A DNA stretch of 32,000 nucleotides from Candidatus Saccharimonadota bacterium (GTDB lineage Archaea; Nanohalarchaeota; Nanosalinia; Nanosalinales; Nanosalinaceae), in the NCBI RefSeq assembly GCF_047555085.1, contig NZ_CP180230.1, positions 90,001-122,000 of the forward strand, given 5' to 3'. A model generated the notes under the pieces. It ran no database searches and was not told the origin of the DNA. It saw nothing but the letters and a program-made list of their open reading frames with translations. Shown here piece after piece: positions 360 through 22,076 of the stretch. Position 1 is the stretch's first letter, and each line of letters begins with the position of its first letter. Made by a program: the position numbers and the translations under genes.

Positions 360-2624
360 ATGTTAGGTATGGACGTAAAAAACAAGGATGTATTCGACTA
401 CGAATACGACGACGAGACAGGAACAGTCGAAATCAACATGCTTGGATCGATCTATGGGGCCTCTATAGAGGATTATCCTGAAGTCATGTCCCGTGTAATC
501 AACATTCTACAGGAGATCCCGGAAGCAGGAAACGTAGTACTATCCGAATCAAGAGAATATGAGTATGAAGAAGATCAGATAAGGCTTCTAAGAGAGATAG
601 CGAACGCAGTAAGAGATATTTCAGCACAGGGATATCTTTCACAGGATATAAAGAGAGATAAATGCAGCCAGCTGTACGATCAGCATCTACCGGAAGTACA
701 GAGAATAGTATTTGACAAGTTAAGGAGAGATCCTGTAGGGGCCTACGTCAAGCTTATTAGAAAGGAAAGACACTTGAGACAGGATAAAGACCATGCGTAT
801 CCTCAGCAACAGCGCTGTATCAAGTATTTTATACAGGATGTGATTAAACCTGTCAAAAACACTCTGGAACAGTGTGAAATGATTCAGAGAGCACAGGACT
901 ATCTTACAGGATATCACGTTGGCGATAGAGAGATCTACAGGGAATTTTTCCACCCTCTTGTAAGGCCTAACTTTATGCTTACAAAGTACATGTCTCTTCC
1001 TCCTGAAAGAGGAGAGGAGAAAACTAGATATACTGTAAGAGACGATATCGAAGTTTCTGTGTATGAAGTCCCTGATCAAACAAGGCCTGTATATCACGTT
1101 GATCCCCCGGAGTTCAATCTTCCTGAGGAGAAATACAAACTCTTGGATGCAGCTAGACGTTTCATGGCCTCTCACAAGCCGGATGAAGGAGAGTTCGCAA
1201 GGCCTGAAAGAATGAATGAAGTCTTCGAGAACATCGGCAGGGACATGCTGAGAGATATTGCGAATCAGATGGGCCTCAAACTTTCACTTGACGAACTCGA
1301 CAAGCTTACAGATATACTTAACAGATATACTTCAGGCCTGGGAGTACTAGAGATTCTTTTGACTGATCCAAAAGTACAGGACGTCTACATTAACTCTCCG
1401 ATCGGAGATGCTCCGATTTACATTACGCATCAGGACTTTGAGGACTGCGAGACAAATCTTATTCCAACAAAAGAGGAGGCCGAATCCTGGGCCACACGCT
1501 TCAGGATCCAGTCTGGAAGGCCTCTTGACGAAGCAAATCCTGTTCTCGATACAGAGACAGAGGTACAGGGAGGCCGTGCCCGTGTAGCAGTAATACAGGA
1601 AAATCTCTCTCCTTCAGGCCTTGCATTTGCTTTAAGGCGCCACAGGTCCCGTATATGGACGCTTCCACTGTTTATACAGAATGGAACTATAAATTCTATC
1701 GGGGCAGCAGTGCTTTCCTTCCTTGTGGATGGTAATCGTTCGCATCTATTCGCAGGGACGCGTGGAGCAGGAAAGACGTCTCTTCTATCAGCTGCTATGC
1801 TGGAAATCATGAAAAATCATCGTATAGTTACTGTAGAAGATACTCTGGAGCTTCCTATACCTCAGATGAAGGATCTGGGATACAATATAGAAAGGATGAA
1901 ATCTCGCTCTGTAATTACGCAGGTTGAAAATGAAATGAGTGCGGATAATGCTATTCGTACCTCTCTCCGTCTTGGAGACTCTGCGCTTGTTATTGGAGAG
2001 GTCAGATCTGATGAGGCCCAGGCCCTTTATGAGGCTATGCGTGTGGGAGCTGTAGCGAACTTTGTTGGAGGTACGATTCACGGAGAGGATGCCTACTCTG
2101 TTTTTGATCGTGTAGTCAACGATCTGGATGTTCCACGTACATCTTTCAAGGCTACAGACATCATAGTTTCTGTAAATAAAATCAGAAGCCCAGATGGCTT
2201 AGAGACATATAGAAGGGTTACGGGTATTACAGAGGTCAGAAAAGAATGGGACGAAGATCCTATGAAAGAAGATGCGTTTGTTGATTTAATGAGGTACGAT
2301 AATGAGAAAGATGAGCTTGTGCCTACAGATACTTTGCGCAACGGTGAGTCGGAGATAATAAGCAGGATTGCGGAGAATGTACAGGGATACAAGAATGACT
2401 GGGAAGCTGTATGGGACAATATACAGCTAAGGAAGAAGATAAAGGAGGCTATAGTGGAGAAAGCAGAGGAAACAGGCAATGACGAGCTTTTAGAGGCTGA
2501 ATTTGTAAACAAGTGCAACCAAAGATACCATATTCTTTCGCGCAAGGTAAATGACGAATACGGAGAACAAGACACGGAGAGAATTTATGCGCGCTGGAAA
2601 GAGTGGCTTGACAGACAGGTGTGA
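360..2624 (+). CDS. type IV pilus/archaellum-family secretion ATPase (GspE/FlaI/PilB superfamily)
   Basis: 754-aa ORF with Walker A AGTRGAGKTS, Asp box IVTVEDTLEL, Walker B ALVIGEVRSDEA and His box GGTIHGED. This is the signature set of T2SSE-type hexameric secretion ATPases. Long N-terminal domain and a charged C-terminal tail. Confidence 0.9.
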   Translation: MLGMDVKNKDVFDYEYDDETGTVEINMLGSIYGASIEDYPEVMSRVINILQEIPEAGNVVLSESREYEYEEDQIRLLREIANAVRDISAQGYLSQDIKRDKCSQLYDQHLPEVQRIVFDKLRRDPVGAYVKLIRKERHLRQDKDHAYPQQQRCIKYFIQDVIKPVKNTLEQCEMIQRAQDYLTGYHVGDREIYREFFHPLVRPNFMLTKYMSLPPERGEEKTRYTVRDDIEVSVYEVPDQTRPVYHVDPPEFNLPEEKYKLLDAARRFMASHKPDEGEFARPERMNEVFENIGRDMLRDIANQMGLKLSLDELDKLTDILNRYTSGLGVLEILLTDPKVQDVYINSPIGDAPIYITHQDFEDCETNLIPTKEEAESWATRFRIQSGRPLDEANPVLDTETEVQGGRARVAVIQENLSPSGLAFALRRHRSRIWTLPLFIQNGTINSIGAAVLSFLVDGNRSHLFAGTRGAGKTSLLSAAMLEIMKNHRIVTVEDTLELPIPQMKDLGYNIERMKSRSVITQVENEMSADNAIRTSLRLGDSALVIGEVRSDEAQALYEAMRVGAVANFVGGTIHGEDAYSVFDRVVNDLDVPRTSFKATDIIVSVNKIRSPDGLETYRRVTGITEVRKEWDEDPMKEDAFVDLMRYDNEKDELVPTDTLRNGESEIISRIAENVQGYKNDWEAVWDNIQLRKKIKEAIVEKAEETGNDELLEAEFVNKCNQRYHILSRKVNDEYGEQDTERIYARWKEWLDRQV

Positions 2625-2630
2625 AATTAG

Positions 2631-4781
2631 GTGTCTGATGAGAAAGACAAACGTAAAGAGAAAATAAACGAGATAGTTGACAATCTCGATAGAGATATCG
2701 AGATGCCTCCATATACACAGAGCTCGGGCGACCGGGGATACTCTCGTCGATACAAACAGTACAAGCAGGAAGAGATAGATTCTGGAGAGAAAAGCACCTA
2801 CGAAAAATTGTGCTATAAGATGGCATCTCTCTTGCAGCTTAGTGCGGATGAATCAATTCAAAACAAACTTAATCCATCTTTGAACCTGTTGAGAATGCAG
2901 CTAACTCCTGGTATGGTGCTTTCTGGGGCTGTAGGAGTTGGATTTTTCTCCTTTATGATATGGGCTTTCGTCTTTGCTATCAACTTTATTATAGGCCCTA
3001 TAATACCGGTTTCTCTCATGATAATTTCTCTTGTTGCCCCTATAGGGGCAGGTGTCTACATGTTCTACAAGCCAATGTTTGATGCAAAGAACAAAGTTAT
3101 AGAAAGCAGTGGCGAAATGATACTTGCAATACTTTACATGGTAGTATACATGCGTTCCAGCCCAAATCTTGAAGGAGCAGTAAGATTTGCAGCTCTTAAT
3201 CTTAATGGCCCTGTTTCACATGATCTAAAAGGCGTTTTATGGGATCTAGAAGTAGGAAAGTTCAACAGGATAGATGAATCTCTGGAGAATTACACTGAAA
3301 ACTGGAAAGACTTCAACCAGGATTTCCTGGAGTCGCTGAACCTCTTGCAGGCAGCAATGGACGAGTCAAACGATGAAAGACGTGAAAAGATGCTTCAGGA
3401 TGCAATAGACAACATTCTGGAAGGAACCCAGGAGAAAATGAAGCACTATGCTCAGGGCCTTAAAACGCCTGTAATGATAATAAACGCCATGGGAGCGATG
3501 CTTCCTGTATTAGGTATGATTATGCTACCTCTTATCTCTGTATTTATGGGGGGAGTTATTACACCGATCCATCTTGTCATAATATTCAATATAATGCTTC
3601 CAGGATTTCTCTGGGTATTCATGCAGAGGGTTCTAAGCTCTAGGCCTCCAACAGTATCTTCTAGGCCTGTAAATACTGATTCGATGCCGCCAAGAGGCAA
3701 GTATGAAATTGAGTTCATGGGAGATAAGCATAGGTTGCCTACATGGCCTTTAGGCGTCATAGTATTCTGTATTGTCGCCATGTATGGTGTTATTGGCTAT
3801 TTAATCTATCCTCACATGTTTCCTGTAGAAAATATCAGTCCTGGAAGCGTTCCATCCATATTTATGTCTGGTAGCGAGTCTCTTGCACCTCTGCCTATGC
3901 TTATGCGATCTGTATCTATTGTTATGGCGCTAGGCCTCGGTTTTGGGATTACAAAGTATCTGGGGAATATCAACAGGCGTGATGCAGAGCAGCAGATAGA
4001 GGAGATGGAGAGCCAGTTCCCGAATGCACTTTTCGAGCTTGGTAACAAGGTTTCTGGGGGTACGCCTATGGAGATTGCACTGAAAAAGGCGGCTGATGCG
4101 ACGCAGGATCTTGAGATATCGAAGCTTTTCGAAGAGGCCTATGAAAATATTGATCAGATGGGTATGACTTTTGAACAGGCTATATTTGACGAGCGCTACG
4201 GTGCCTTGAGAAGCTTTCCAAGTCAGATGATTGATACTATTCTTACTGCTATTCTTCGTTCATCTCAAAAAGGTACTAAGATGGCGGCTACTGCTATGCT
4301 TACGATTTCCAGGTATCTAAAAGATGTTCACAAGACTGAAGAAACTCTTAATGATTTGATGGAAGAGTCTACAACTACTATTGAGATGCTTGCATACATG
4401 CTGGCTCCTATAATATCTGGAGTTGCTGTAGGAATGTCGCAGACGATTATAACAGCTATGTTCAAGCTTTCTACATCTATTAGCGCAGAGCAATCTGGCA
4501 GTACTCTTCAGGGAGGAGCTGCAGGAGGTGCAGGATTTGGAGGCATGATCGGCAACTTGAAAGAAGCTATCCCGCCAGAAATGCTACAGTTTGTAGTTGG
4601 GATTTATTTACTCCAGCTGCTTTACATACTAGGTACTTTCTACATGAAAATTGTCCATGGAGAAAATATGACATACAAGAATCTCTTCATTGGCAAAGTG
4701 ATGGTAACAGGCCTGATATTTTATACTCTTACGTTGACAGCCATCTCTGTCATGTTCGGTGGAGCTATATCCACGATGTAG
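2631..4781 (+). CDS. polytopic membrane platform protein (FlaJ/PilC/TadC, T2SSF-like)
   Basis: 716-aa ORF with a GTG start 7 nt after the ATPase stop. Two clusters of TM helices, each preceded by a soluble helical segment (GEMILAILYMVVYMRSSPNLEGAVRFAA and MESQFPNALFELGNKVSGGTPMEIALKKAA). This matches the duplicated T2SSF architecture. Sits directly downstream of the ATPase. Confidence 0.8.
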   Translation: MSDEKDKRKEKINEIVDNLDRDIEMPPYTQSSGDRGYSRRYKQYKQEEIDSGEKSTYEKLCYKMASLLQLSADESIQNKLNPSLNLLRMQLTPGMVLSGAVGVGFFSFMIWAFVFAINFIIGPIIPVSLMIISLVAPIGAGVYMFYKPMFDAKNKVIESSGEMILAILYMVVYMRSSPNLEGAVRFAALNLNGPVSHDLKGVLWDLEVGKFNRIDESLENYTENWKDFNQDFLESLNLLQAAMDESNDERREKMLQDAIDNILEGTQEKMKHYAQGLKTPVMIINAMGAMLPVLGMIMLPLISVFMGGVITPIHLVIIFNIMLPGFLWVFMQRVLSSRPPTVSSRPVNTDSMPPRGKYEIEFMGDKHRLPTWPLGVIVFCIVAMYGVIGYLIYPHMFPVENISPGSVPSIFMSGSESLAPLPMLMRSVSIVMALGLGFGITKYLGNINRRDAEQQIEEMESQFPNALFELGNKVSGGTPMEIALKKAADATQDLEISKLFEEAYENIDQMGMTFEQAIFDERYGALRSFPSQMIDTILTAILRSSQKGTKMAATAMLTISRYLKDVHKTEETLNDLMEESTTTIEMLAYMLAPIISGVAVGMSQTIITAMFKLSTSISAEQSGSTLQGGAAGGAGFGGMIGNLKEAIPPEMLQFVVGIYLLQLLYILGTFYMKIVHGENMTYKNLFIGKVMVTGLIFYTLTLTAISVMFGGAISTM

Positions 4782-4943: not shown

Positions 4944-5090
4944 ATGATGATGTCCGAGATAACTATAGGAGTTCTTGCGATAGCTATAGGGGCATTACTG
5001 GCTGCTGCAGCTTCCGGCATGCTAGGTAACAGCGGTATAACGGCAATGATAATGAGTCCTCTCTCCGAAATGACTGCAGGTGCCTTATAA
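4944..5090 (+). CDS. small membrane protein (48 aa from the ATG triplet; ORF track gives 4899..5090)
   Basis: MMMSEITIGVLAIAIGALLAAAASGMLGNSG... has an N-terminal hydrophobic helix. The SD-like AAAGGAGA lies just upstream of ATGATGATG at 4944. Its stop TAA overlaps the next ATG (TAATG). Confidence 0.4.
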   Translation: MMMSEITIGVLAIAIGALLAAAASGMLGNSGITAMIMSPLSEMTAGAL

Positions 5091-6058
5091 TGGCAGGACA
5101 GCAAATTAACAGGATGATGAGCATCGTACTTATACTTCTCTTTGTAGTAGTGCTCGGATCCTTCGCATTCACAATGGTAGGGGAAGCTGAATCTTCGGCA
5201 GTAGGAAAGATACAGATTAACAGCACACAGGCTATGACTCAACTTATCGTATACGACACACTGATAGCACACAGCTGCACCGATGAAAAAGGAGGTTACA
5301 GAAACTACCTTGATAGCTGGGCAGAATTCAGGGAAGAATACGACTTCGGCCTTCTTGAAGGAGCAGGATCCAGTCTTAGATGCTCTGCTTCAACTTCAAA
5401 GCTTCCGCTTTCACAGGGATTCTGGGATGAAGTAAACCCATTCGACAACGACAACTGGCTTAACGATCAACAGGGCAAATACTCCAGAAAAAATTTTGTC
5501 ATAGAGGGAGATGATCCTGTCGAACTAGGTCCATGCATAATCAATGAAGGGAACAACAAAGATATGGTGTTTTTCGTAACGGATGACAAAGTGGCAAACA
5601 CGCTCACATGGAACAAAGGATATAGTTTCAACAACGGAAATGATTATGTGAGTGCTTGGGAGTGTAATAGAATACATGGCGGTAGCGGCAATGGGGGTAC
5701 ATCTGATGGGCCTGTAATTGTCCTGAATGTTATTGGTGCTGATGAAGCAAATCCAAATACGCGGAGTGTTGGTGCATGGAACAACTTCAACGATGCAAAT
5801 ACAGGAGGTGCTCATGACATTCCGCTTCACTTCTACGAACTCTGTAAAGGCACATCAGGATACATCCAGACCAATGTAGCTAATAACAATGATGAAGTTG
5901 ATGATGGTGCTGACAGAGGACCTCATATATGGCGCAAAAGTGGCTCATATACTGCTGAACAGCCTCCTGGGGATCCTGATCGCGAAGTAGGAGGGAAGTC
6001 ACGTTCCAACAGGATGCATCCGTACATAGTGATAACTAACTGGGAGTCCTGTGATTAA
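5090..6058 (+). CDS. pilin-like/secreted protein with a single N-terminal TM helix (322 aa)
   Basis: MAGQQINRMMSIVLILLFVVVLGSFAFTMVG is followed by an Asn/Asp/Gly-rich soluble domain with 6 Cys. Translationally coupled to the upstream ORF. No family recognised. Confidence 0.6.
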   Translation: MAGQQINRMMSIVLILLFVVVLGSFAFTMVGEAESSAVGKIQINSTQAMTQLIVYDTLIAHSCTDEKGGYRNYLDSWAEFREEYDFGLLEGAGSSLRCSASTSKLPLSQGFWDEVNPFDNDNWLNDQQGKYSRKNFVIEGDDPVELGPCIINEGNNKDMVFFVTDDKVANTLTWNKGYSFNNGNDYVSAWECNRIHGGSGNGGTSDGPVIVLNVIGADEANPNTRSVGAWNNFNDANTGGAHDIPLHFYELCKGTSGYIQTNVANNNDEVDDGADRGPHIWRKSGSYTAEQPPGDPDREVGGKSRSNRMHPYIVITNWESCD

Positions 6059-6061
6059 GAA

Positions 6062-6069
6062 ATTTATAA
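6062..6069 (+). promoter_or_regulatory. candidate TATA box (ATTTATAA)
   Basis: AT-rich TATA-like octamer in the 54-nt gap after the 322-aa gene, about 45 nt upstream of the ATG at 6113. Confidence 0.25.
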
Positions 6070-6112
6070 GAGGAAAAACAAAGGCCTTAATGTGGAACGA
6101 AAAGGATTTGAC

Positions 6113-6241
6113 ATGCCTATATCCGCTGTACTTGCTATAGTTTTGGGAGTTCTGTTTATAGCGGCTTACTGGGCTGCAGTATCAGGATACTTTGATACCA
6201 CTGCACAACAGGCCACAGGACTGGCGGAGGCCCTGCCATGA
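6113..6241 (+). CDS. 42-aa hydrophobic micro-protein (hand-found)
   Basis: Translates as MPISAVLAIVLGVLFIAAYWAAVSGYFDTTAQQATGLAEALP. Its stop overlaps the next ATG (ATGA at 6238-6241). Confidence 0.35.
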   Translation: MPISAVLAIVLGVLFIAAYWAAVSGYFDTTAQQATGLAEALP

Positions 6242-6405
6242 AAACTAGCAAAGGATTCAATTTCTCTATAAGAACAGTCATGATTGTAACTGTTGGAGTA
6301 ATAGCTGCTCTAGTTATAATGTCATTTCTGAACGATGGCACAGGCCTTTTCTCAAATTTCACAAATAGAACAGTTCCAGAGGGTGGTTTTGTTGGACAGC
6401 CGTAA
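6238..6405 (+). CDS. 55-aa pilin-like protein with a class III signal peptide (hand-found)
   Basis: MKTSKG/FNFSIRTVMIVTVGVIAALVIMSF... has a short basic n-region, a KG cleavage-type motif and then a hydrophobic helix. This is the archaeal prepilin layout. Confidence 0.5.
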   Translation: MKTSKGFNFSIRTVMIVTVGVIAALVIMSFLNDGTGLFSNFTNRTVPEGGFVGQP

Positions 6406-6637
6406 AGCAGTCACTCTTTCGATAAAAACTGTTCTGTTGCTTATGATAGGCGCACTAGTCGTACTCAGTATCATGGGCGCCTGGGGCGCATTCGAAGGAA
6501 ATCTAAGTGATACAGTCGGCGATTCAAATCAACAGGCACAAGATCAGTCCAGCCAGGCTTCTTGTCAGCTGGAGTGCAGACAGGAACATCTGAGCGGTGG
6601 AGGTGAATACGAGGCCTGTGTTCAGAGCTGTTCGTAA
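6383..6637 (+). CDS. small pilin-like protein with four C-terminal Cys
   Basis: The ORF track starts at ATG 6335, which would overlap the previous gene by 70 nt. In-frame GTG 6383 or TTG 6389/6392 gives (M)VLLDSRKA/VTLSIKTVLLLMIGALVVLSIMG. The C-terminus is SCQLECRQEHLSGGGEYEACVQSCS (C-x3-C ... C-x3-C). Start uncertain. Confidence 0.5.
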   Translation: MVLLDSRKAVTLSIKTVLLLMIGALVVLSIMGAWGAFEGNLSDTVGDSNQQAQDQSSQASCQLECRQEHLSGGGEYEACVQSCS

Positions 6638-7202
6638 TTTAAAATCCAGTAAGGGGGCTATAATGGCCTCTACCGTATTTATAGTTGTTTCTGTAGTTGT
6701 ATCTGGTCTTGCAATGGATATAAGCATTAATACGGTTGTTGATTCATTTCAATCGGCCAGCGACCAAAGTGATGTTAACTGGTTCTCCACTAATATAGCG
6801 GCTAATGCCAAGCAGCTGTGCGAGACATCTGAGGAAAGAGTTGTCCCTCTAGATAGTAGCTACACACGGTATATCTCAGGTCTTCAGGGCATCAGTGTGG
6901 AAACTCAGGAACAGGTTATTCCCAGTTATGGTGCTGCTCCATCGACTACGATATACTATAACAAGTTTATACTCTCCTTCGAAGGAGGTGCAGATGATAA
7001 AGAAGTTACTATAGAGTCTGAGAGCTCAACTTACAGCGGTGGAGGTCCAGATGATTTTTCCTGCCAGACGATAGAGTTCAACGGCACTCAGACAGGTAGC
7101 TCCATCCAGAACCTAGATGGATCCCAAAGATATGATTACCGTCTCTACTCTGAACAGGAAGGAGAGGTAACTGTAGAAGTAGTTGAAAGTGGTGAGGCAT
7201 GA
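6597..7202 (+). CDS. pilin-like protein (201 aa; alternative start ATG 6663)
   Basis: The long form reads ...NLKSSKG/AIMASTVFIVVSVVVSGL, with a class III-like KG motif. The short form starts at MASTVF, preceded by an AAGGGGG SD. 2 Cys. Confidence 0.6.
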   Translation: MEVNTRPVFRAVRNLKSSKGAIMASTVFIVVSVVVSGLAMDISINTVVDSFQSASDQSDVNWFSTNIAANAKQLCETSEERVVPLDSSYTRYISGLQGISVETQEQVIPSYGAAPSTTIYYNKFILSFEGGADDKEVTIESESSTYSGGGPDDFSCQTIEFNGTQTGSSIQNLDGSQRYDYRLYSEQEGEVTVEVVESGEA

Positions 7203-7603
7203 CACTATCTGACAGAGCTGTTGTATTTTTGGTAGCTACTCTTTTGTCAGCAGCTACTTTGTCCACGGCAGGGATAGCTGAACAGAACAGCGTCTTCCAG
7301 AACAAGATTTTCGAACTCAGAGGCCAGCAATTAGCCAATGATATAGATGCCATGATGTATACGGATGAAGGATACCTTGAGAAAAGACTGGCATCTGAAA
7401 CAGATCTAACTATCACATCAGGAGACTCAGGTATGAAAATAGTGCTTGAGAGAGAAGGCCTGGACGATGTAGAGGCACCACTGGATTCAAGTCCGAGCTC
7501 GACAACTTTAGAGGACGTATCTTACCTCTGCATACATAAGCATAGATTCAATCCAGTTCAGGGAGTGGCTGAACTGGTAGATGTGGAGGGAGGACAATGT
7601 TAG
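7199..7603 (+). CDS. pilin-like protein (134 aa)
   Basis: MTLSDRA/VVFLVATLLSAATLSTAG N-terminal helix. ATGA overlap with the upstream gene. 2 Cys, one of them the C-terminal residue. Confidence 0.6.
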   Translation: MTLSDRAVVFLVATLLSAATLSTAGIAEQNSVFQNKIFELRGQQLANDIDAMMYTDEGYLEKRLASETDLTITSGDSGMKIVLEREGLDDVEAPLDSSPSSTTLEDVSYLCIHKHRFNPVQGVAELVDVEGGQC

Positions 7604-8094
7604 ATAATCGTATCGCACAGGCTGGTGTTATGGTGGGCGTAATGGGGCTTCTATTTGGAATGGTATTGGCTCCTATACCGAACGTGGCCTCTGAATATGT
7701 CTTACAAGGTATACTTGGAGACATGACTTTTCACTATGGTCGACATCAGGCTGCTTTTGAGGCATATCAGATAACAGCATCACCATCAAATCCAAACTAT
7801 CTGGTTGAAGATTACGTGATTCAGACGGCGGTTGACAATCCTTCCGACTGTGAAAACTCCAGGGGGGACTACTTCCAGTTCGAAAGAAGTGTGCTTGATG
7901 ATGGAAACTGTGTTGAGACTCCGGATACTGCATATACATATGGGTACTATGGCACAGGTGCAGCGTATCAGCAGGAAATAACAGATACTCCACCAAGAAT
8001 ATCGTTTTACGTTAGAGACGATGGCCCAAACTCAATGAATCTCGAATTAAGTGAACAAACACTGAATACGTTACCATTTTATCAAGAGGATTAG
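7597..8094 (+). CDS. pilin-like protein (165 aa)
   Basis: MLDNRIAQAGVMVGVMGLLFGMVLAPIP N-terminal helix. 7-nt overlap with the upstream gene. 2 Cys. Confidence 0.6.
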   Translation: MLDNRIAQAGVMVGVMGLLFGMVLAPIPNVASEYVLQGILGDMTFHYGRHQAAFEAYQITASPSNPNYLVEDYVIQTAVDNPSDCENSRGDYFQFERSVLDDGNCVETPDTAYTYGYYGTGAAYQQEITDTPPRISFYVRDDGPNSMNLELSEQTLNTLPFYQED

Positions 8095-8104
8095 AAATAT
8101 GTTT

Positions 8105-8112
8105 AAGGAGGT
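8105..8112 (+). promoter_or_regulatory. Shine-Dalgarno site AAGGAGGT
   Basis: Near-perfect complement of an archaeal 16S 3' end, 8 nt upstream of the ATG at 8121. Weaker GGTG/GAGGTG motifs precede many other starts here (2631, 13102, 18362, 20487, 22093). Confidence 0.5.
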
Positions 8113-8120
8113 AGAAAGAA

Positions 8121-8615
8121 ATGGCTAGCATCGCGGATGGACTTTTCTTTCCAATAGCTGCTGTAGCCACGGCCGCATTCATTGCATTTGTAGTGGCCAT
8201 AATACCTCAGGCGACTGCAGATCTTACTACTGCTGCTAACAGGCAGACGGCACAGTTAGAAGTACATTCTATGATGTCTACATTGTTCCACGGACAATCT
8301 TACAGTGCCGATGATGGGACGCCAATAACAGATTATCAAACTATATCCTATCTTATCTGCGGCAAAAACCCTGATAATGGAGGCTGGCTGGACATAGGCA
8401 ATCAGGAATACCTTGATACAGGTGAAATAGAACTGGCCTCTCACTATGAGATACGGATTTCAACACCGGATCTATGTGGCAACAGCAAATGGAATCCGCC
8501 TGAAGGATATGCGGGAGTAGACTCAGGTCAGACTGTAAACAGCTACTATGATGTAATGCTGCCTGTGAGAGGAGGGGAAACAGCCCGTATACGAATGGTG
8601 TATGGATTTGACTAA
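8121..8615 (+). CDS. pilin-like protein (164 aa)
   Basis: MASIADGLFFPIAAVATAAFIAFVVAIIPQ N-terminal helix. Strong SD. 2 Cys. Confidence 0.65.
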   Translation: MASIADGLFFPIAAVATAAFIAFVVAIIPQATADLTTAANRQTAQLEVHSMMSTLFHGQSYSADDGTPITDYQTISYLICGKNPDNGGWLDIGNQEYLDTGEIELASHYEIRISTPDLCGNSKWNPPEGYAGVDSGQTVNSYYDVMLPVRGGETARIRMVYGFD

Positions 8616-10131
8616 GAGAAGACAACAAAAAGGACAGTCGATGCAGATACTTCTTTTCGCTTTAGTAATAGTAGGCCTTGCTGTAGGCGTAATGTCATTT
8701 ACACAGGTAATGACTGCTCCACAGATATTCGGTTCTACCATGGATGATGTACCGGTTATCTCAGAGGCCCAGTCCAGGACGGATAACGTGGCTAATTACT
8801 ATGTGCCGCTTTCAGCGCACTACTCCATGGCACAGGGCGTGTATGATGTAGGACAGGCCAACGACATAATAATGACGTATCAGAATCTCCAAGATCATTA
8901 CGGTGACGAGGTGGACGACGTTGAAGTAGCATCACAGTATACATTTGAGGGGTATATACAGGATCCAGAATGGGAAATAGGAAGATGCACTATAGAGGTG
9001 CCTCCGAAAGATCTTGAGGTCGGGATAAACTCCACTCTCGTGAACGTCACCAAGGAAAACTACAACGATCCATTCGTCAGAACCCTCTGTGAAGGTGGTG
9101 ATGTAGAGGTACAAACACAGAGTAACAAAGACGAGGCCCAGAAAAACACGTCCAATATCCGTTTCCATCACCTCATGGTGATGACTATAAACGGCCTGGA
9201 GGCGGTTCATGAGGAATCTGAAACTGCAAAAGATGATGACGATTACTACGGCACTGTAACTGAAGAAGGGGCCTGTTATCTCGATGGGAACGATCCCCAG
9301 ACAAAAGAGGAAAAAGCCAGACAGGATGCCAGGCAAGAATCATATGACTCCGCAGTAAGCGAGATTCTAAGTCTTCAGGAGAGATTTGAGGAAGCAGGAT
9401 GGAACGCAGTAGATAATATCGAAGTATCTGAAGACGAAAATACAGGTATATTTGGCAGAATTATAAATTTTGTTACGTTCTGGGAGACGGATAATACATT
9501 TGACTGGAGCTTCAATGTCTACGAAAACTCCACAGAGATTAGCGAACAGTCAAATGAGCTTAGCGACTGCGAATGTGCAGAATATGACTGCGAAGGATAC
9601 ATAGATGATAGTACATACGAATACGATTCATCCGACAGTCAGTGCAAACATGAAGATGAACCCTTTGGAAGCCCAAATTGTGATGAATACAGCGGGGTAG
9701 TCCACGATGGGTCAGGAAGCTGTGAAACAAGTTATCATCCTCCAAAATGCGATCCCGGATACAGTTTCAACTCGAGCACCAATACATGTGAATCTGATTA
9801 TGGCAATGACTGGGAGTTCGCCTGCGATCAGAATGACTACTACCTGGATACCAGTGATGAAGAATGCGTACACGATAATTCAGGAGAAGATGCAACCTGT
9901 GATAGCTCGGCAGCCAAAGAGTCCGGCGGCGACTGTGTACACGATGGAGAAAGACCTAGTCCAGTATGCGTGCTACAGCCTGTAAAAGCAGAATCTGAGA
10001 CATACTACGAACTGAAAGACTACAAAATGCAATCATACACCGAGGACGAAAAATACGAAATACCTGTGGAAGATGGATGGGAAAACCTTGAGATCAAACG
10101 AAGATACCCATACGACTTCCCAGAACCATAG
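8602..10131 (+). CDS. large pilin-like protein with a Cys-rich C-terminal domain (putative tip adhesin)
   Basis: MDLTKRRQQKGQS/MQILLFALVIVGLAVGVMSF is a typical archaeal class III signal (basic n-region, KGQ, hydrophobic helix). The 509-aa protein is very acidic and has 16 Cys, 13 of them in residues 323-456. 14-nt overlap with the upstream gene. Confidence 0.75.
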   Translation: MDLTKRRQQKGQSMQILLFALVIVGLAVGVMSFTQVMTAPQIFGSTMDDVPVISEAQSRTDNVANYYVPLSAHYSMAQGVYDVGQANDIIMTYQNLQDHYGDEVDDVEVASQYTFEGYIQDPEWEIGRCTIEVPPKDLEVGINSTLVNVTKENYNDPFVRTLCEGGDVEVQTQSNKDEAQKNTSNIRFHHLMVMTINGLEAVHEESETAKDDDDYYGTVTEEGACYLDGNDPQTKEEKARQDARQESYDSAVSEILSLQERFEEAGWNAVDNIEVSEDENTGIFGRIINFVTFWETDNTFDWSFNVYENSTEISEQSNELSDCECAEYDCEGYIDDSTYEYDSSDSQCKHEDEPFGSPNCDEYSGVVHDGSGSCETSYHPPKCDPGYSFNSSTNTCESDYGNDWEFACDQNDYYLDTSDEECVHDNSGEDATCDSSAAKESGGDCVHDGERPSPVCVLQPVKAESETYYELKDYKMQSYTEDEKYEIPVEDGWENLEIKRRYPYDFPEP

Positions 10132-10183
10132 GCAGCAGAGATAAAAATTTTCACTACAAATACACCAACCAAGTGACTACCAT

Positions 10184-10468
10184 ATGACACAGGATACAGC
10201 AGACGACAACACGGTATACATTGGCTCAAAAACAGCAATGAGCTACGTACACGCCGTAGTAACTCAGTTCAGCGAAGGACAGGAAACAGTACACATCAAG
10301 GCCCGAGGAAAAGCAATAAGCAGGGCAGTAGATGTGACTGAATTCATAAGAAATCGCTTCGTAGAAGACGCAGAGATAGAAAATATAGAAGTAGGAACAG
10401 ATCAGATCGAGACAGATGAAGGCGGAGAACTCAACGTATCTTCAATACAGATCGATCTAACAAAATAA
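10184..10468 (+). CDS. albA: chromatin protein Alba (Sac10b family)
   Basis: 94 aa. [21 protein letters not shown]...[24 protein letters not shown] matches the conserved Alba core (IKARG.AIS.AVD..E..RNRF). Confidence 0.9.
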
Positions 10469-10571: not shown

Positions 10572-10916
10572 ATGGAACGTAAAGGAATCTCTCAGGTATT
10601 ATTCTTGATAATAGCAGCATCCGTACTGATGATGGTAGCACTAACGCTCATTTTCATGTTCCAGTCCGGTGCCGGAGATACTACTCAACAGGCCCAGACA
10701 CAGACATGCATATCATCTGTACAGGCTAAATGTAACAGCTTCGGAGATGAATATGTGAGAATGCCTGGGGCATGCATAACAACAGTTGATGGACAGAGAC
10801 AGATGCTTCCAAACACATTCGCGCCACATACTCAGGGAGCTAATGGATACAGTTCGGTATCGTCGCTTTCAGGGACTTCAGGCGCTGTCTATGCTGACTG
10901 TGGAGAAGTTTCATGA
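10572..10916 (+). CDS. pilin with class III signal peptide (114 aa), candidate major subunit
   Basis: MERKG/ISQVLFLIIAASVLMMVALTLIFMF. Small Ser/Thr/Gln-rich domain with 4 Cys. Has its own TATA-like element. Confidence 0.7.
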   Translation: MERKGISQVLFLIIAASVLMMVALTLIFMFQSGAGDTTQQAQTQTCISSVQAKCNSFGDEYVRMPGACITTVDGQRQMLPNTFAPHTQGANGYSSVSSLSGTSGAVYADCGEVS

Positions 10917-10926
10917 GGTATAGAGA

Positions 10927-11202
10927 ATGGATAAGACTCTGGAGATAGTGCTGGTGGCAACCACGCTCGTAGTAGCATCTGTAGTGGTTGTCTCCATGCT
11001 TCAGGGCCAATCCAGCAGCTTTGGAGATTTTTCTGAGGGCCAGACGAGCTCAGCATCATGCGGACTTGGTTACCAGCAGTGGCAGCAGTCGATTGACTGT
11101 GGTGGGGGATCCGCAGACACGACCTCACGATCAGATGAACTGGAGAGCGAGTATGATGACTGCGAGTGGACTGACAGTCCCAGCGCCAGTGAAGCATGCT
11201 AG
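10927..11202 (+). CDS. small pilin-like protein, paralog A (91 aa)
   Basis: MDKTLEIVLVATTLVVASVVVVSMLQGQ N-terminus. 4 Cys, including the C-terminal residue. Paralogous to 11251..11520. Confidence 0.65.
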   Translation: MDKTLEIVLVATTLVVASVVVVSMLQGQSSSFGDFSEGQTSSASCGLGYQQWQQSIDCGGGSADTTSRSDELESEYDDCEWTDSPSASEAC

Positions 11203-11221
11203 AAGCCATTTTTCAAATTTC

Positions 11222-11229
11222 TTTTATAC
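11222..11229 (+). promoter_or_regulatory. candidate TATA box TTTTATAC
   Basis: Ends 21 nt before the ATG at 11251. Identical octamer to 10541-10548. Confidence 0.4.
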
Positions 11230-11250
11230 CTCCATCCACAATAGAACTCT

Positions 11251-11520
11251 ATGGATAAGACGCTGGAGATAATCATGGTCGCCATGACACTTGTAGTAGC
11301 GGCCGTAGTAGTTATTTCCATGCTTCAGGGAGAATCAGGAGATTTTGGTGAGTTCTCAGATGGACAGCAGGAGAGCTCTCAGTGCGGACTTGAAGAACTC
11401 AAATACGAGAGAGCTCTTGATAAGGAATCCTGTTCGGAAACAACTGCAGCTGAGAACATAAGAACAGGCTCCAGTTGTGACTGGGCAGGAAGCAGCAGCC
11501 AAGCATCAGACTACTGCTAG
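11251..11520 (+). CDS. small pilin-like protein, paralog B (89 aa)
   Basis: MDKTLEIIMVAMTLVVAAVVVISMLQGE N-terminus. Cys pattern is conserved with paralog A (CGL...C...C[ED]W...C-end). Confidence 0.65.
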   Translation: MDKTLEIIMVAMTLVVAAVVVISMLQGESGDFGEFSDGQQESSQCGLEELKYERALDKESCSETTAAENIRTGSSCDWAGSSSQASDYC

Positions 11521-13101: not shown

Positions 13102-14703
13102 ATGGCTGGCGATGTAATTTTCGGCGATGAAGACGATTCTGAAAATGAAACAGAGAAAGAAGTAGTTGTAGAGGATACAGAGACAGAAGAGGAAGCTAAA
13201 GAGGAAAGCCAGCAGGATGTACTATTTGAACAGGACGAGTCCAAAGATGAAGACTCGGAGGCCTCCAGCGATGAGGAAAAATCAGCAGGCCTGAACGACT
13301 TCTCGGATGATACGGAAGAATCAGAAGATGACTCTGGAGATGACTCTGAAGACGAATCCGGTCAGGATGTATTGCTCGGCGACGAAGAGGAAAGCTCCAG
13401 CGAGCAGGAATCTGAAGAAGATGAAGAAAGTACGGGAGACTCAGATCAGGACGAAGAAGAGGAAGAATCTCTGGGAACTGATGAAAAGGCCTCTTCGATG
13501 GATTTCGATCCCGAAAAAGTCAGGGAACTGGAGGAGAAGCTTGAAGGCTTGGAAGCTGAACTTGAGAAAATAAGAGAGCAGACGGGAGAGGAGAAAGATA
13601 TCTCCGGCCTTGAAGAAAATGTAGAGGAGCTTGAAAATCAATTCGAGGAGCTTGCGGAAGTAGAGGACAGGCTTGAAGAGATGGAAACTGTTGATCCGGG
13701 CCTTGAACAAGAAGTAAACAGGATAGAAAACGATTTCGAGGAAAGATTTGAAGACGTCAAATCGACTATATCCGATATAGATACTGAAGAAGAACTGAAA
13801 GATCTCAGAGAGGATCTTAACAAGGTGAAGGATCGTCTGGCCGAGAAATCAGGCCTTGTAAAGGATATAAGATCAGAAGTATCTGATCTGGAAGAAGAGC
13901 TCGAGGAAGCAGAGGCCTCGGAGCCGGAAAACATCGAAGAAGTTCAGGAAAAAGTAGAACAGCTGGAAGAAAGAGAGCTTGTCGATCAGGAGGAAATAGA
14001 CGAACTCCGTGATCTGATCGATGAAGAACCTGAAGGCCTTGAAGATTTAAGGGAAAAAGTTTCGGAGCTTGAACAGAAGGACTTCGTTGAGAAAGAAGAT
14101 CTCGACGAGCTGCGGGAAATGATTGATGAGCAGCCTGAAGGCCTGGAGGATCTCCGTGATAAAGTTTCGGAGCTCGAAGAGCAGGATAATATAGAGGAAA
14201 AGCGTGTAGAACAGCTGGAAGTAGCTCTCGACAATCTTGAGACTCGTCTGGATAAAGTAGAGTCAAGCAAGAGTCAGGAAAAATTCTCAAAGCTTGAGGA
14301 AGACGTTGAAAACGTTAAATCGATTGTAAATGACTTCAAATGGCTTTTCAACGACTTCGATGATCTTTCACAGCTAAAGCTCCTGTCGATGGATGAGTTC
14401 AAGGAACTGAAAGGTACAGGGCAGGAGACGCCTATCGATCAACAGGTGCTGGAATCTCTTGACAACAAGCTAGAGGCAGTTATAGAGGCCTCAGTGACTG
14501 AAGAGGAACGTATCAACAATCTTGAGTCCCGCGTAGCGGATATAGAGCAGGCTGTAAATACTCAGACAAGAGATGAGGATGTAGAAATCCTTCTTGACAG
14601 GATAGAGCATCAGGAAGAACAGATTGAAGAGATAAGAGAAGGCTACAGAGAGCTGGGAGAAATGATGGAGATCCTGCTACAGGAATACAGGAATCAACAG
14701 TAA
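13102..14703 (+). CDS. hyper-acidic coiled-coil protein (hypothetical)
   Basis: 533 aa. The first 130 or so residues are almost only D/E/S/G/T and look disordered. The rest is E/L/K/D heptad-like coiled coil containing a 35-aa tandem repeat. No family recognised. Confidence 0.75.
   Translation: MAGDVIFGDEDDSENETEKEVVVEDTETEEEAKEESQQDVLFEQDESKDEDSEASSDEEKSAGLNDFSDDTEESEDDSGDDSEDESGQDVLLGDEEESSSEQESEEDEESTGDSDQDEEEEESLGTDEKASSMDFDPEKVRELEEKLEGLEAELEKIREQTGEEKDISGLEENVEELENQFEELAEVEDRLEEMETVDPGLEQEVNRIENDFEERFEDVKSTISDIDTEEELKDLREDLNKVKDRLAEKSGLVKDIRSEVSDLEEELEEAEASEPENIEEVQEKVEQLEERELVDQEEIDELRDLIDEEPEGLEDLREKVSELEQKDFVEKEDLDELREMIDEQPEGLEDLRDKVSELEEQDNIEEKRVEQLEVALDNLETRLDKVESSKSQEKFSKLEEDVENVKSIVNDFKWLFNDFDDLSQLKLLSMDEFKELKGTGQETPIDQQVLESLDNKLEAVIEASVTEEERINNLESRVADIEQAVNTQTRDEDVEILLDRIEHQEEQIEEIREGYRELGEMMEILLQEYRNQQ
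13990..14199 (+). repeat. 2 x 105-nt in-frame tandem repeat inside the acidic coiled-coil gene
   Basis: EEIDELRDLIDEEPEGLEDLREKVSELEQKDFVEK versus EDLDELREMIDEQPEGLEDLRDKVSELEEQDNIEE: 24/35 identical by hand alignment. CCTGAAGGCC recurs at 14029 and 14134. Confidence 0.8.
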
Positions 14704-19950: not shown

Positions 19951-20454
19951 ATGAAACAGGTCAGGATTCCGGATGAGAGAGTAGGTGTCCTTATTGGTGA
20001 GGGCGGTGAAACGAAGAGAGAGTTCGAGGATTTGACAGATTGCAGTTTAACTATTGAGGATAATCTTGTGAAGGTTGATGGCGAGGTCCTGGATGAGATG
20101 AAGGCTCAGGAGGTCGTCAAGGCTATCGGCCGAGGTTTCAGTCCTGAGAGAGCTTTTCATCTGCTTGAGAAGGATAAGATGCTTTACCTGATTGATATAG
20201 GAGATTTTGCAGATACAAGTAATGCTGAGGAGCGTTTGAAGGGTAGAGTAATCGGTAGAGATGGTGAGACGCGTCGACATATCGAGAAGCAGACTGAGAC
20301 TGATATCAGTGTTTATGGCGGTACTGTTGCTATTATAGGTAAAGGCCGTAATGTTGAGGTTTCACGTGAAGCGATCAGGATGCTTCTCAAGGGGTCAAGT
20401 CACTCTACTGCATACAATTATCTTGAGAAAAATCAGGGTAAGATTGAGCAATGA
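19951..20454 (+). CDS. KH-domain RNA-binding protein (Dim2/Pno1-like)
   Basis: 167 aa with two KH-like GxxG segments (IGEGGETKR and IGRDGETRRHIE). Conserved position downstream of rio1. Confidence 0.8.
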   Translation: MKQVRIPDERVGVLIGEGGETKREFEDLTDCSLTIEDNLVKVDGEVLDEMKAQEVVKAIGRGFSPERAFHLLEKDKMLYLIDIGDFADTSNAEERLKGRVIGRDGETRRHIEKQTETDISVYGGTVAIIGKGRNVEVSREAIRMLLKGSSHSTAYNYLEKNQGKIEQ

Positions 20455-20486
20455 GTTTTTCCAGAAGTTTTGAGGTGTAAAGATAG

Positions 20487-22076
20487 ATGGCAAATGGAAT
20501 TGAAGAACCAGTACAGGAAGAATCCGACCACAGAGAGATCTCAGTAGCAGAGTTTTTCGAGAAGAACAAGCACCTGCTGGGATTCGAGAATGCACAAAAA
20601 TCTATAATAACAGTAATTAAGGAGGCCGTTGACAACTCTCTGGATGCTTGTGAGGAAGATGCTATACTTCCGGAGATACAGGTCCTTATCGATGATCTTG
20701 GCGACGATAAATGCCGTGTCGAGATCAGGGACAATGCTATAGGCCTCGACAGGGAGACTATTCCGAAGGTATTCGGTAAGCTGCTTTACGGATCAAAGTT
20801 CCACAAGCTTCAGCAGAGCCGTGGACAGCAGGGAATCGGTATCTCCGCTTCTGCGATGTACGCTCAGTTGACTACAGGAGAGCCTGTAACTGTTTACTCG
20901 AAGCAGAAAGGTGAGCCGTGTCACAGATTTGTTGTAAGAATTGATACTGAGAAGAACGAGCCGGAGATTCTTGAAGATGAGATTGTTGATCCGGAAAGCG
21001 ATGAGTTCCCTGGAGACAAGGATTACTACTTCGATCATGGAACAACTATCGAGATGAACATCGAGGCCAAGTACACGAAAGGCCACCACTCCGTCCGCAA
21101 CTACCTCAAGCATACGGCGATCATGAATCCGTACGCAAGAGTAGTTCTACGGGAGCCAAGCGGCAACAAGATCGAGTATCCGCGTGTCTCAAAGGAGCTC
21201 CCGGAGCCTCCGAAGGAGATCAAGCCTCATCCGCATGGAGTGGAGCTTGGAGTCATGCTGCGTATGATAGACAACAGCGACTCCCGTACAATCAGCAGCT
21301 TTCTTCAGAGCGAGTTCACACGTGTCGGAAGAACTTCTGCAGAGGAGATCTGTGAAGAGGCCGATATAGATGATGGGAGAAGGCCTAACACATTAAGTAA
21401 AGATGAAGTAGAGCAGATTCTTAATGCCGCACAGCGTGTAAAGCTTCAGAATCCTCCTACAGACTGTCTTTCTCCTCTTGGAGAGGATCTGATGCTTAAA
21501 GGCCTGGAGAAAGAGTTGAATCCAGAGTTCACAGAGACTATCACTCGTAAGCCAAGTGTTTATCAGGGGAATCCTTTCCAGGTGGAAGTTGGACTTGCAT
21601 GGGGAGGAGATATTGAAGATGAAGGAAGCTTTGAAGAACTAAGATACGCTAACAAGGTGCCGCTTCTTTACAAGAAATCGGCCTGTGTGACTACAAAAGC
21701 TATAGAAGATGTTTCCTGGAACCGCTATAACATCAGCCAGACAGGTAACAGGCCTCAAGGCCCGCTTTACATCTCAATTCACATTGCATCGGTTTGGGTG
21801 CCGTTTACTTCAGAAGGTAAGGAGGCTGTTGCCAACTACGATCCTATCCGGAAGGAGATGAAGCTGGCATTACAGGAAGCAGGTAGAAAGCTTGGAAAGT
21901 ATCTCAAGAGGAAAGAGAGAAGAGAAATCCAGGAGAAGAAGAAGAGACAGCTCACATCCTATGCAAAGGAGATGGGGCCTGCTATTGCGCAGCTAGCCGG
22001 TGAAGGTGATGCTGAGGAAATCGAAGATGAGATCCAGGCGATGGTTCAGAGGGACTACAATCCGGAGCAGCTTTAA
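20487..22076 (+). CDS. top6B: DNA topoisomerase VI subunit B
   Basis: ISVAEFFEKNKHLLGF......IITVIKEAVDNSLDACEE (GHKL Bergerat fold N-box) and GKLLYGSKF...QSRGQQGIGIS (G-boxes). 529 aa. Confidence 0.95.
   Translation: MANGIEEPVQEESDHREISVAEFFEKNKHLLGFENAQKSIITVIKEAVDNSLDACEEDAILPEIQVLIDDLGDDKCRVEIRDNAIGLDRETIPKVFGKLLYGSKFHKLQQSRGQQGIGISASAMYAQLTTGEPVTVYSKQKGEPCHRFVVRIDTEKNEPEILEDEIVDPESDEFPGDKDYYFDHGTTIEMNIEAKYTKGHHSVRNYLKHTAIMNPYARVVLREPSGNKIEYPRVSKELPEPPKEIKPHPHGVELGVMLRMIDNSDSRTISSFLQSEFTRVGRTSAEEICEEADIDDGRRPNTLSKDEVEQILNAAQRVKLQNPPTDCLSPLGEDLMLKGLEKELNPEFTETITRKPSVYQGNPFQVEVGLAWGGDIEDEGSFEELRYANKVPLLYKKSACVTTKAIEDVSWNRYNISQTGNRPQGPLYISIHIASVWVPFTSEGKEAVANYDPIRKEMKLALQEAGRKLGKYLKRKERREIQEKKKRQLTSYAKEMGPAIAQLAGEGDAEEIEDEIQAMVQRDYNPEQL

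Follow-up and report, generated by a model that had tools for sequence, protein, structure and literature searches.

The open reading frame (ORF) at 8602..10131 (plus strand) of the window analysed here, a 32,000-nucleotide stretch of contig NZ_CP180230.1 (positions 90,001 to 122,000; assembly GCF_047555085.1), encodes a 509-aa product that is identical to a database protein listed as a "hypothetical protein" of Candidatus Nanosalina sp. VS9-1. Our analysis gives good support to the view that this protein is a large pilin-like subunit, encoded in a conserved nanohaloarchaeal pilus locus, and that it carries an extracellular, disulfide-stapled and expandable repeat insert. As to its function, analogy with modular pilins tips the balance, by a modest measure, towards a large modular pilin-like subunit that belongs to a tip or initiation complex and whose module probably contacts the surface of the haloarchaeal host. 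The start of the protein in the NCBI annotation (P0001, 507 aa, MTKRRQQ...) lies two codons 3′ of the ATG at 8602 (window 8602-8610), and the predicted mature protein is unaffected by this difference.

The protein contains 16 Cys residues (129, 163, 225, 323, 325, 330, 348, 360, 374, 383, 396, 408, 422, 433, 445 and 456), and 13 of these 16 fall between residues 323 and 456, i.e., exactly within nt 9568-9969. Given a Cys background of 0.8% in the other 31 ORFs of the window, the binomial probability of finding at least 13 in 134 residues is ~9e-11. A preliminary description of this DNA had counted 13 Cys residues in a D/E/S/Y-rich segment, and the recount agrees with it, as does the composition (D+E 26%, K+R 3%, rich in S/T and in Y). 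Hydrophobic residues are almost missing, with I, L, V, M and F making up 7.5% of the segment versus 27% of the window proteome. The recurring C-[VK]-H-[DE] motif that had been pointed out was also recovered: the quoted peptides SQCKHEDE, EECVHDNSGEDATC, GGDCVHDGERPSPVC, VVHDGSGSC and KCDPGYSFNSSTNTC are all found verbatim in the translation, and both forms of the motif stood out when the segment was shuffled with its composition preserved, C-x-H-[DE] occurring three times (a count matched by just 1e-4 of the shuffles) and [VK]-H-[DE] four times (as many in 0 of 200,000). The spacing of the Cys residues is regular as well, the nine Cys-Cys steps from C348 to C456 averaging 12.0 ± 1.5 residues; with the SD of the final ten distances as the measure, equal regularity was reached in 5e-4 of cases when the Cys were placed at random. 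A chance or low-complexity origin of the segment was ruled out by the shuffle tests together with the conservation described below. Neither DNA-level repeats nor tandem repeats were found in window 9400-10200, and because of the missing DNA-level repeat the units described next are taken to be old and degenerate rather than recent duplications.

The plan of the module was derived by splitting every homolog at its Cys residues, which revealed a common arrangement of a cap, C-x-C-x4-5-C, followed by alternating segments A and B. Segment A, of ~13 residues (x2-4-[FY]-x-[HFY]-D-G-x-G-x-C), is a short β-hairpin ending in Cys, examples being FEHDGSGGC, VVHDGSGSC, GYSFNSSTNTC and FTFDSGSC. Segment B, of ~11 residues, is a Pro-rich linker, often with x-H-[DE] at its start and [RK]-P-x-P-x-C at its end, e.g., VHDGERPSPVC, KHEDEPFGSPNC and EYTGSVPSPTC. 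The peptide VVHDGSGSC had earlier been regarded as a related copy of C-x-H-[DE]; on this plan the two are different things, the former being a hairpin segment A and the latter the start of a linker segment B. In the window protein, the cap (residues 323-330) precedes five A/B units of ~24 residues each, at 331-360, 361-383, 384-408, 409-433 and 434-456, and the AlphaFold2 (AF2) model places one short hairpin in each A segment (339-350, 367-375, 387-398, 413-424 and 438-447), with the Cys in the second strand. The cap, C323-E-C325-AEYD-C330 (9568..9591, plus strand, as are all five units), is of the CxCx4-5C type that opens the module in nearly all members with at least seven module Cys; a variant, C-x5-6-C-x4-C, is seen in the homologs P0014, P0017 and P0029. 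Across 33 sequences C323 and C325 are at least 90% conserved, and so is C456. Unit 1 (9592..9681) consists of the hairpin EGYIDDSTYEYDSSDSQ-C348 and the linker KHEDEPFGSPN-C360, with an AF2 hairpin at 339-342/347-350. Unit 2 (9682..9750) has the hairpin DEYSGVVHDGSGS-C374, of the canonical form [FYV]xHDGxGxC that recurs in the family, followed by the linker ETSYHPPK-C383 (AF2 strands 367-368/373-375). The hairpin of unit 3 (9751..9825), DPGYSFNSSTNT-C396, is half-EGF-like (C-x2-G-Y-x8-C) and leads into ESDYGNDWEFA-C408 (AF2 hairpin 387-390/395-398), and unit 4 (9826..9900) combines DQNDYYLDTSDEE-C422 with VHDNSGEDAT-C433 (AF2 hairpin 413-416/421-424). Unit 5 (9901..9969) couples a degenerate hairpin, DSSAAKESGGD-C445, to the linker VHDGERPSPV-C456 with its canonical RPxPxC end (AF2 hairpin 438-441/444-447).

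The alternation of A and B was assessed in 226 segments, counted back from the last Cys, from members with at least nine module Cys. Pro in the last five residues was found in 75/113 B and 23/113 A segments (Fisher p 3e-12), Gly in the last four residues in 32/113 B and 70/113 A segments (p 6e-7), an aromatic-x-aromatic/His pattern in 10/113 B and 40/113 A segments (p 2e-6) and an x-H-[DE] start in 18/113 B and 4/113 A segments (p 0.003), all of these p-values overstating independence, as the sequences are related by descent. The hairpin of unit 4 (window 9826-9867) takes the form D-x-D-G-D-x-D-x-D-W-x-Y-D, which resembles a Ca2+-binding loop, in P0009, P0016, P0030, P0032 and P0034, and is degenerate in the window protein. 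Two N-glycosylation sequons, N309-S-T (9526-9534) and N390-S-S (9769-9777), are kept in 5/5 close homologs, and the latter, which is located in the turn of the unit-3 hairpin, is a sequon also in 8/12 distant modules and may be a conserved N-glycosylation site. Overall, sequons are not enriched in the protein (5 observed vs 3.9 expected, P=0.36).

At the N-terminus the protein reads MDLTKRRQQKG/QSMQILLFALVIVGLAVGVMSF, which has the make-up of a class III (prepilin-type) signal (8602..8715, plus strand): a charged leader (aa 1-11) ending in [KR]-[GA], a predicted cleavage before Q12 and ~20 hydrophobic residues within the α1-N segment (aa 12-38). K10, G11 and Q12 are invariant among the close homologs, and most full-length family members have a leader of 2-12 residues ending in K-G (or K-A, E-G, S-G), usually followed by Q and then by 20-25 hydrophobic residues, which bears out the prepilin-like N-terminus of the preliminary description. 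The N-domain (aa 39-322, 8716..9567, plus strand) is predicted to comprise a long α1-C helix, an α/β region with C129, C163 and C225, all three invariant in close homologs, and an outgoing β-strand. The AF2 prediction (model m08f260087ab0) was poor with 5 sequences (predicted local distance difference test, pLDDT, 41) and reached a pLDDT of 85 and a predicted TM-score of 0.66 with the 33-sequence family alignment. It has a helix at residues 13-84 with a kink at P40, residues 13-38 being the hydrophobic part, and α/β elements thereafter; pLDDT is mostly >85 in the N-domain, ~87 in the module and >90 in the strands that flank it. A 23-residue strand (300-322) precedes the module, and the strands 461-489 and 492-505 come after it, the latter two being the returning strands of the conserved tail (aa 457-509 plus the stop codon, 9970..10131, plus strand; pLDDT 92-98). 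In this model the Cys module is an excursion between two long consecutive strands, i.e., an insertion that interrupts a long β-hairpin, and it would most simply emerge from the distal turn of a long β-ribbon, as do the inserted domains of GspK and ComZ. The tail carries the signature ...AE....Y...IPV.DGW.NL.I.RRY..F, and this 53-residue stretch is found in every family member, including those nearly without a module. Its identity to the close homologs (81/72/68/51%) is the highest of any segment in the three closest, the module reaching 72/63/61/54% and the N-domain 71/60/54/43%. Since this best-conserved tail comes after it, the module is an insertion and not the C-terminal end of the protein, as had been thought.

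A word-indexed search for the family to which the protein belongs yielded four relatives at 47-73% identity, in which all 16 Cys are invariant, and its repetition with the profiles A2 and A4 added no new members. An exhaustive profile search among 1.84 billion representatives (50% identity clusters) returned 30 clusters at E<=1e-3, none of which has a Pfam annotation or a name, and a profile search of genome contigs with 8 sequences led to one locus, in the Nanohalarchaeota metagenome-assembled genome (MAG) NHA29. The named sources are Nanosalina and "Nanohalarchaeota" MAGs, and the family has so far been encountered solely in Nanohaloarchaeota-type loci. The preliminary description had left room for Cys positions that vary among homologs; what was observed is that, when 12 modules of 23-73% identity are compared, 12 of the 13 Cys columns do not vary, and the 13-Cys layout holds down to 23%. 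Motifs other than Cys, namely HDGxG, GY.[FY]N.S and the H[DE] after Cys, are still seen at 23-34% identity. Pfam and NCBIfam gave nothing significant for the target, 33 family members and five isolated modules, and sequence searches of the PDB, run both for the protein alone and for the profiles A2 and A4, produced chance matches only (SSA1, E=0.22; cathepsin S, E=0.22). The module had been described as no known domain, and this stands with regard to Pfam, NCBIfam, the PDB sequences and Foldseek (PDB, BFVD).

The genes around the target point to a pilus. A PilB/FlaI-type secretion ATPase of 754 aa (360..2624, plus strand; Pfam T2SSE 1.9e-15, NCBIfam FlaI 3e-41 and TadA 3.5e-36, both below cut-offs) and a PilC/FlaJ/TadC-type membrane platform protein of 716 aa (2631..4781, plus strand; Pfam T2SSF 8.7e-8, in two stretches) are encoded 6-8 kb upstream on the same strand. 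The platform gene is followed by ORFs with N-terminal hydrophobic segments, of 63, 322, 49, 55 and ~100 aa. Among them are a 322-aa pilin-like component (5090..6058, plus strand) that has 6 Cys and a hydrophobic helix at its N-terminus, the Cys count being kept in the related loci L001 and L005, and two very short prepilin-like ORFs (6092..6405, plus strand; 49 aa, MERKG/FDMPISAV..., and 55 aa, MKTSKG/FNFSIRTV...), which have equivalents in L001 and L005 and are candidate major filament subunits. Four pilin-like ORFs of 201, 134, 165 and 164 aa come next (6597-7202, 7199-7603, 7597-8094 and 8121-8615, plus strand), each of which has a hydrophobic segment at its N-terminus and exactly 2 Cys, a count that is the same in L001 and L005 at 22-75% identity to the orthologs. 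The first three of them overlap mutually and the fourth overlaps the target by 14 nt, so that the target is the last and largest of a run of five coupled pilin-like genes. Beyond it lie the gene for Alba (10184-10468; Pfam 1.7e-17) and three small prepilin-like ORFs (10572..11520, plus strand) of 114, 91 and 89 aa with 4 Cys each, a count that is again kept in L001 and L005; the order of the small pilins is shared by L001, L005, L006, L007 and L010, and partly by L009. Eleven loci (L001-L012 minus L008, which is too short) cover nine homologs, i.e., P0003, P0004, P0005, P0010, P0021, P0022, P0023, P0038 and the one in the NHA29 MAG. In 11/11 of them the target has the same position, the gene order being whole or partial: coupled pilin-like genes, target and, where the contig reaches, Alba, small pilins, iPGM and FEN1. 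It follows that the members examined are orthologs that occupy a single conserved locus, and the arrangement of ATPase and platform genes is conserved in L001, L002, L005, L006, L007, L009 and L010. No archaellin, FlaF/G or FlaH match was found in any locus ORF, and the locus is accordingly of the type IV pilus-like kind; the archaellum was rejected also in view of the ATPase score of 141.6 bits against a FlaI cut-off of 550.

Some further features of this neighbourhood were noted. The ORFs at 10927-11202 and 11251-11520 (91 and 89 aa) are adjacent paralogs that both begin with MDKTLEI followed by a hydrophobic helix and have 4 Cys each; they are conserved in the five other loci that reach that far, and with a leader unlike the KG/Q type of the target they may represent a different pilin class or the major subunit. 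The Alba chromatin/RNA-binding gene is found amid the pilin run in nearly every locus examined, and was not detected in L011. Just past the pilus locus, a 533-aa, Cys-free and very acidic protein (13102-14703) gave weak coiled-coil-type Pfam matches (NPV_P10, XhlA, EzrA); it has the same position in related loci, at lengths of 436-573 aa.

The components of the locus differ widely in their conservation. Identity to L006/L001/L005 is 97/93/91% for the ATPase, 95/89/85% for Alba and 86/87/80% for FEN1, versus 64/48/30% for the target and 22-85% overall for the other pilin-like ORFs; the platform protein is 75-91% identical in orthologous loci. This contrast reads as the usual pattern of a conserved machine with fast-evolving, putatively exposed subunits. 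In lineages that share no more than 79-87% identity in FEN1 and iPGM, the pilus ATPase retains 91-97%, and such conservation above that of housekeeping genes suggests an unusually strong constraint on the machinery of these symbionts. The module itself ranges in the orthologs from 1 to 195 residues and from 1 to 19 Cys, with helix, N-domain and tail retained and protein lengths of 330-590 aa across the family, i.e., a pilin module is combined with an extra one that the core does not need, as in modular pilins. There is 1 module Cys in P0021 (L012, 333 aa), 3 in P0023 (L010, 444 aa), 7 in P0038 (L009, 393 aa), where they are packed in 18 residues, 13 in the window protein, P0005 and P0010 (509-548 aa) and 19 in P0022 (L011, 585 aa). 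In a rough tree of the N-domain, built by the unweighted pair group method with arithmetic mean, minimal modules are found in a basal group, collapsed modules (P0015 with 1 Cys, P0008 with 7) are nested among relatives with 9-13 Cys, and neighbouring branches differ by whole units (9 vs 13; 11, 15, 19). On account of this tree pattern and of the near-loss in some members, the unit number is labile and the module dispensable for the core role.

Disulfide bonding, which the preliminary description had assumed, is strongly implied by the even Cys totals of the full-length members and by the missing hydrophobic core. In every full-length member the Cys total of the mature protein is even (4, 6, 8, 10, 12, 14, 16, 18, 20 or 24), the sole odd total, 19 in P0024, including one leader Cys. 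The number of module Cys is always odd (1, 3, 7, 9, 11, 13, 15, 19), and that of the N-domain is odd too (3, 5, 7), the minimal members having 1 module Cys and 3 N-domain Cys. The simplest reading of these counts would be eight extracellular disulfides in the window protein, namely C129-C163, a tether at the module's base between C225 and either C323 or C325, and six others inside the module. The data would allow closed A loops (C330-C348, C360-C374, C383-C396, C408-C422 and C433-C445, plus C323/325-C456) as well as closed B loops. P0018, P0022 and P0024 share two extra Cys, one just after the first hairpin and one three residues past the last Cys, and this pair suggests that the first unit lies beside the last, as would be the case for an excursion that returns to its base. 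Even Cys counts are also found in every other pilin-like ORF of the locus (5090-8615 and 10572-11520), with 6 in the 322-aa protein, 4 in the ~100-aa protein, 2 in each of the four coupled ones and 4 in each of the three small ones; the counts are identical in L001 and L005, and 0-2 Cys is the usual number in the cytoplasmic neighbours. The filament system as a whole appears to be built of disulfide-stapled subunits in a Cys-poor proteome. In L010, ~9 kb from the orthologous pilus locus of this relative, a 320-aa membrane-anchored DsbA-like protein is encoded (20314-21276, minus strand), with an N-terminal C2H2-like zinc finger, a transmembrane helix and then a Thioredoxin_4/DSBA domain (5e-21) with a CPFC site, and it is a candidate extracytoplasmic disulfide oxidase. 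An equivalent was not found in the scanned parts of the window. Oxidative folding is thus supported by the lack of a hydrophobic core, the even and conserved Cys across the pilin-like ORFs and the DsbA-like protein nearby in a relative.

How the protein would function can be outlined from these results. The conserved core, i.e., the helix, N-domain and tail, would do the pilus assembly, and the module would be an addition that varies by lineage and faces outward, because orthologs at the same position carry anything from 1 to 19 module Cys. With disulfides replacing the hydrophobic core, the insert would form a salt- and protease-tolerant acidic excursion. By analogy with modular minor pilins of the GspK, ComZ, PilB and CofB type, the target would take its place in a tip or initiation complex together with the four upstream pilin-like proteins, and its module would touch the outside world, probably the haloarchaeal host surface. 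A role as tip adhesin can reasonably be inferred from the gene order, the size, the exposure-type evolution and the modular-pilin analogy, and the module, which has no database match and changes in size between lineages, is a plausible host-cell contact surface. Several observations weigh against this assignment. The core function can do without the module, which several lineages have all but lost. Nor is the module hypervariable over short distances, to judge from the segment identities given above, which is unlike a fast-evolving receptor-binding site. The comparison of the module with the N-terminus that had been proposed earlier points the same way: the module is no more variable among close relatives, with nonsynonymous rates (dN) for module and N-domain of 0.23/0.22 in the closest pair and of 0.20/0.13, 0.31/0.34 and 0.40/0.65 in others, roughly equal and the only rates that could be compared, given the saturation of the synonymous rate (dS) in almost all pairs and regions (identity to the closest relative is 73%). 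No gene for a prepilin peptidase (peptidase A24) was present among the window ORFs scanned, and Foldseek with the AF2 model found no pilin or other match in the PDB and BFVD (best E=0.03, TM-score <0.1).

The main rival to the tip adhesin is a purely structural role. The protein might be a GspK-like tip or initiation minor pilin whose module rigidifies or lengthens the distal hairpin, e.g., spans the S-layer or sets the geometry of the complex, and binds no ligand, and we regard this as a good deal less probable, if deserving of serious weight. It would explain why the module evolves about as fast as the N-domain and under purifying selection (dN far below the saturated dS), why the unit number steps by whole 2-Cys units and can collapse to 1-3 Cys with no loss of gene or locus, and why Pfam and NCBIfam recognised no binding domain; the highly conserved tail and N-domain likewise suggest a role in assembly. 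A pure spacer, however, does not need non-Cys motifs that persist at 23-34% identity, nor a conserved glycosylation sequon at a hairpin turn, and the big length differences despite a near-identical machinery (ATPase >90%) fit better with adaptation to different partners.

Another alternative is that the protein is a membrane-anchored surface protein that is never polymerised, its class III-like N-terminus being a signal-anchor or pseudopilin stub as in the sugar-binding proteins of the Sulfolobus bindosome. The size of 509 aa and the helix-rich N-domain are atypical of pilins; Foldseek found no pilin match, so that the pilin fold of the N-domain is putative, and the ATPase weakly matches the bindosome ATPase BasE (NCBIfam 1.8e-17, far below cut-off). 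Against this stand the tight operon coupling to four small pilin-like genes and the conserved KG/Q leader, both typical of minor pilin sets, and there are well-documented examples of large modular minor pilins that become assembled (PMC8179133); we consider the alternative unlikely. Least probable is a metal-binding Cys/His or acidic Ca2+/Mg2+ module, in which C-x-H-[DE] and HDGxG would serve as ligands of Zn, Cu, Ni or Ca instead of forming disulfides: the five His among its 134 residues, of which four belong to H-[DE] dyads beside Cys, the Ca-loop-like DxDGDxDxD in unit 4 of distant homologs and the very acidic composition speak for it, whereas the strictly even Cys totals in ~25 full-length members, with odd numbers in both module and N-domain, fit paired disulfides, the location is extracellular with a DsbA-like oxidase in a relative, no zinc-finger or metal-binding Pfam model matched, and the His are retained in 8/12, 6/12, 7/12 and 3/12 modules at four positions, with F, W, Y, S or L in their place in many homologs, and are thus not obligate ligands. 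The signal peptide, together with the parity of the Cys and the substitution of the His, ruled out an intracellular metal-cluster protein. Ca2+ binding on top of the disulfides is possible.

Returning to the modular pilin-like subunit with a host-contacting module, a bolder and rather doubtful extension would be that the A/B repeat array is a new disulfide-rich fold and the host-recognition determinant of nanohaloarchaeal pili, with the unit number (0 to 9), the surface residues including the H-[DE] dyads and the unit-3 glycan site being tuned in each lineage to the S-layer or envelope of its host. If host recognition is indeed what the module does, it would be a molecular marker of the host range of DPANN archaea. 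Attention in Nanohaloarchaeota has mainly been on the giant SPEARE proteins, the pilus components being unannotated "dark matter". The family defined here (~30 clusters) supplies an extremely conserved pilus machinery with its largest pilin-like subunit, and the family's modular, expandable insert is a concrete candidate, with clear domain boundaries, for study in cultivated nanohaloarchaeon-haloarchaeon pairs. It is also a case of a lineage with a Cys-poor acidic proteome that builds its surface filament proteins around paired cysteines.

Single-disulfide hairpin modules are familiar from Cys-rich proteins of eukaryotes, namely the C5-C6 sub-loop of EGF, the TNFR A1 module (C-x2-G-x-[YF]-x4-9-C) and the furin-like repeats of the EGF and insulin receptors. 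The module of the window protein resembles these in its short β-hairpins with G-[FYW] that end in Cys, in its Cys-terminated linkers and in the lack of a hydrophobic core, and differs from them in the two-part A/B unit with HDGxG and PxPxC. The "EGF-like" spacing of the preliminary description holds up as a half-motif: C-x2-G-[FYW]-x4-9-C occurs in the window protein and 9 homologs, and a shifted C-x2-G-x-[FYW] in 6 more. The signatures of a six-Cys EGF domain are, in the PROSITE manner, C-x-C-x5-G-x2-C (EGF_1) and C-x-C-x2-[GP]-[FYW]-x4-8-C (EGF_2), and the likeness does not extend to these, both being absent from all 40 family sequences (0/40). The window module had no EGF, TNFR or furin-like match in Pfam, cEGF appearing in one homolog only and with E=0.14, and Foldseek gave no match to domains of any of these kinds either. 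The resemblance is most likely convergent, an analogy rather than membership. Bacterial type IVa pilins have a D-region that consists of one loop with one disulfide, and the target shares with it a Cys-bounded, lineage-variable and surface-exposed region near the C-terminus; the other pilin-like proteins of the locus, with exactly 2 or 4 Cys, look as if they had one or two D-region-like staples each. Unlike the D-region, the insert is an array, which in the family reaches as many as nine units, and no homology to bacterial pilins can be detected.

The closest comparison is with modular minor pilins, in which modules are inserted into or grafted onto a pilin, such as the α-domain of GspK, the β-solenoid of Thermus ComZ, the vWA module of PilB and the lectin module of PilC in S. 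sanguinis, and CofB of enterotoxigenic E. coli and TcpB of V. cholerae (PMC8179133). They are judged to be located at the tip, because bulky modules would clash sterically with neighbouring subunits in the shaft (PMC8179133). The target has, like them, a prepilin N-terminus, a size far above that of the other pilin-like proteins of its operon and an extra module outside the core, and it is encoded with small minor-pilin-like genes near an ATPase and a platform protein; as in GspK and ComZ, the module is inserted within the pilin body rather than appended. It differs from them in belonging to an archaeon (DPANN), in an N-domain with no detectable sequence or Foldseek similarity to solved pilins and in a module that is a disulfide-rich mini-repeat array, which has not been reported in those proteins. 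Nanohaloarchaeota are known to express FlaI/FlaJ/pilin-like proteins and to bear visible pili (PMC6642349; bioRxiv 10.1101/794461). With its ATPase, platform and unannotated signal-peptide proteins, the locus described here is like the FlaI/FlaJ/pilin-like loci and DPANN "dark-matter pilins" that have been noted before, for which a part in host interaction was proposed and whose proteins were detected in the proteome of Nha. antarcticus (PMC6642349, PMC6393860, PMC9563170); in one of these studies no pilins could be annotated (PMC9563170). The family of 330-590 aa proteins, the Cys-rich repeat insert and the variation in unit number are not described in these papers. What is new here, as far as the sequences tell, is a sequence-novel Cys-rich repeat on an already known kind of protein, the modular pilin.

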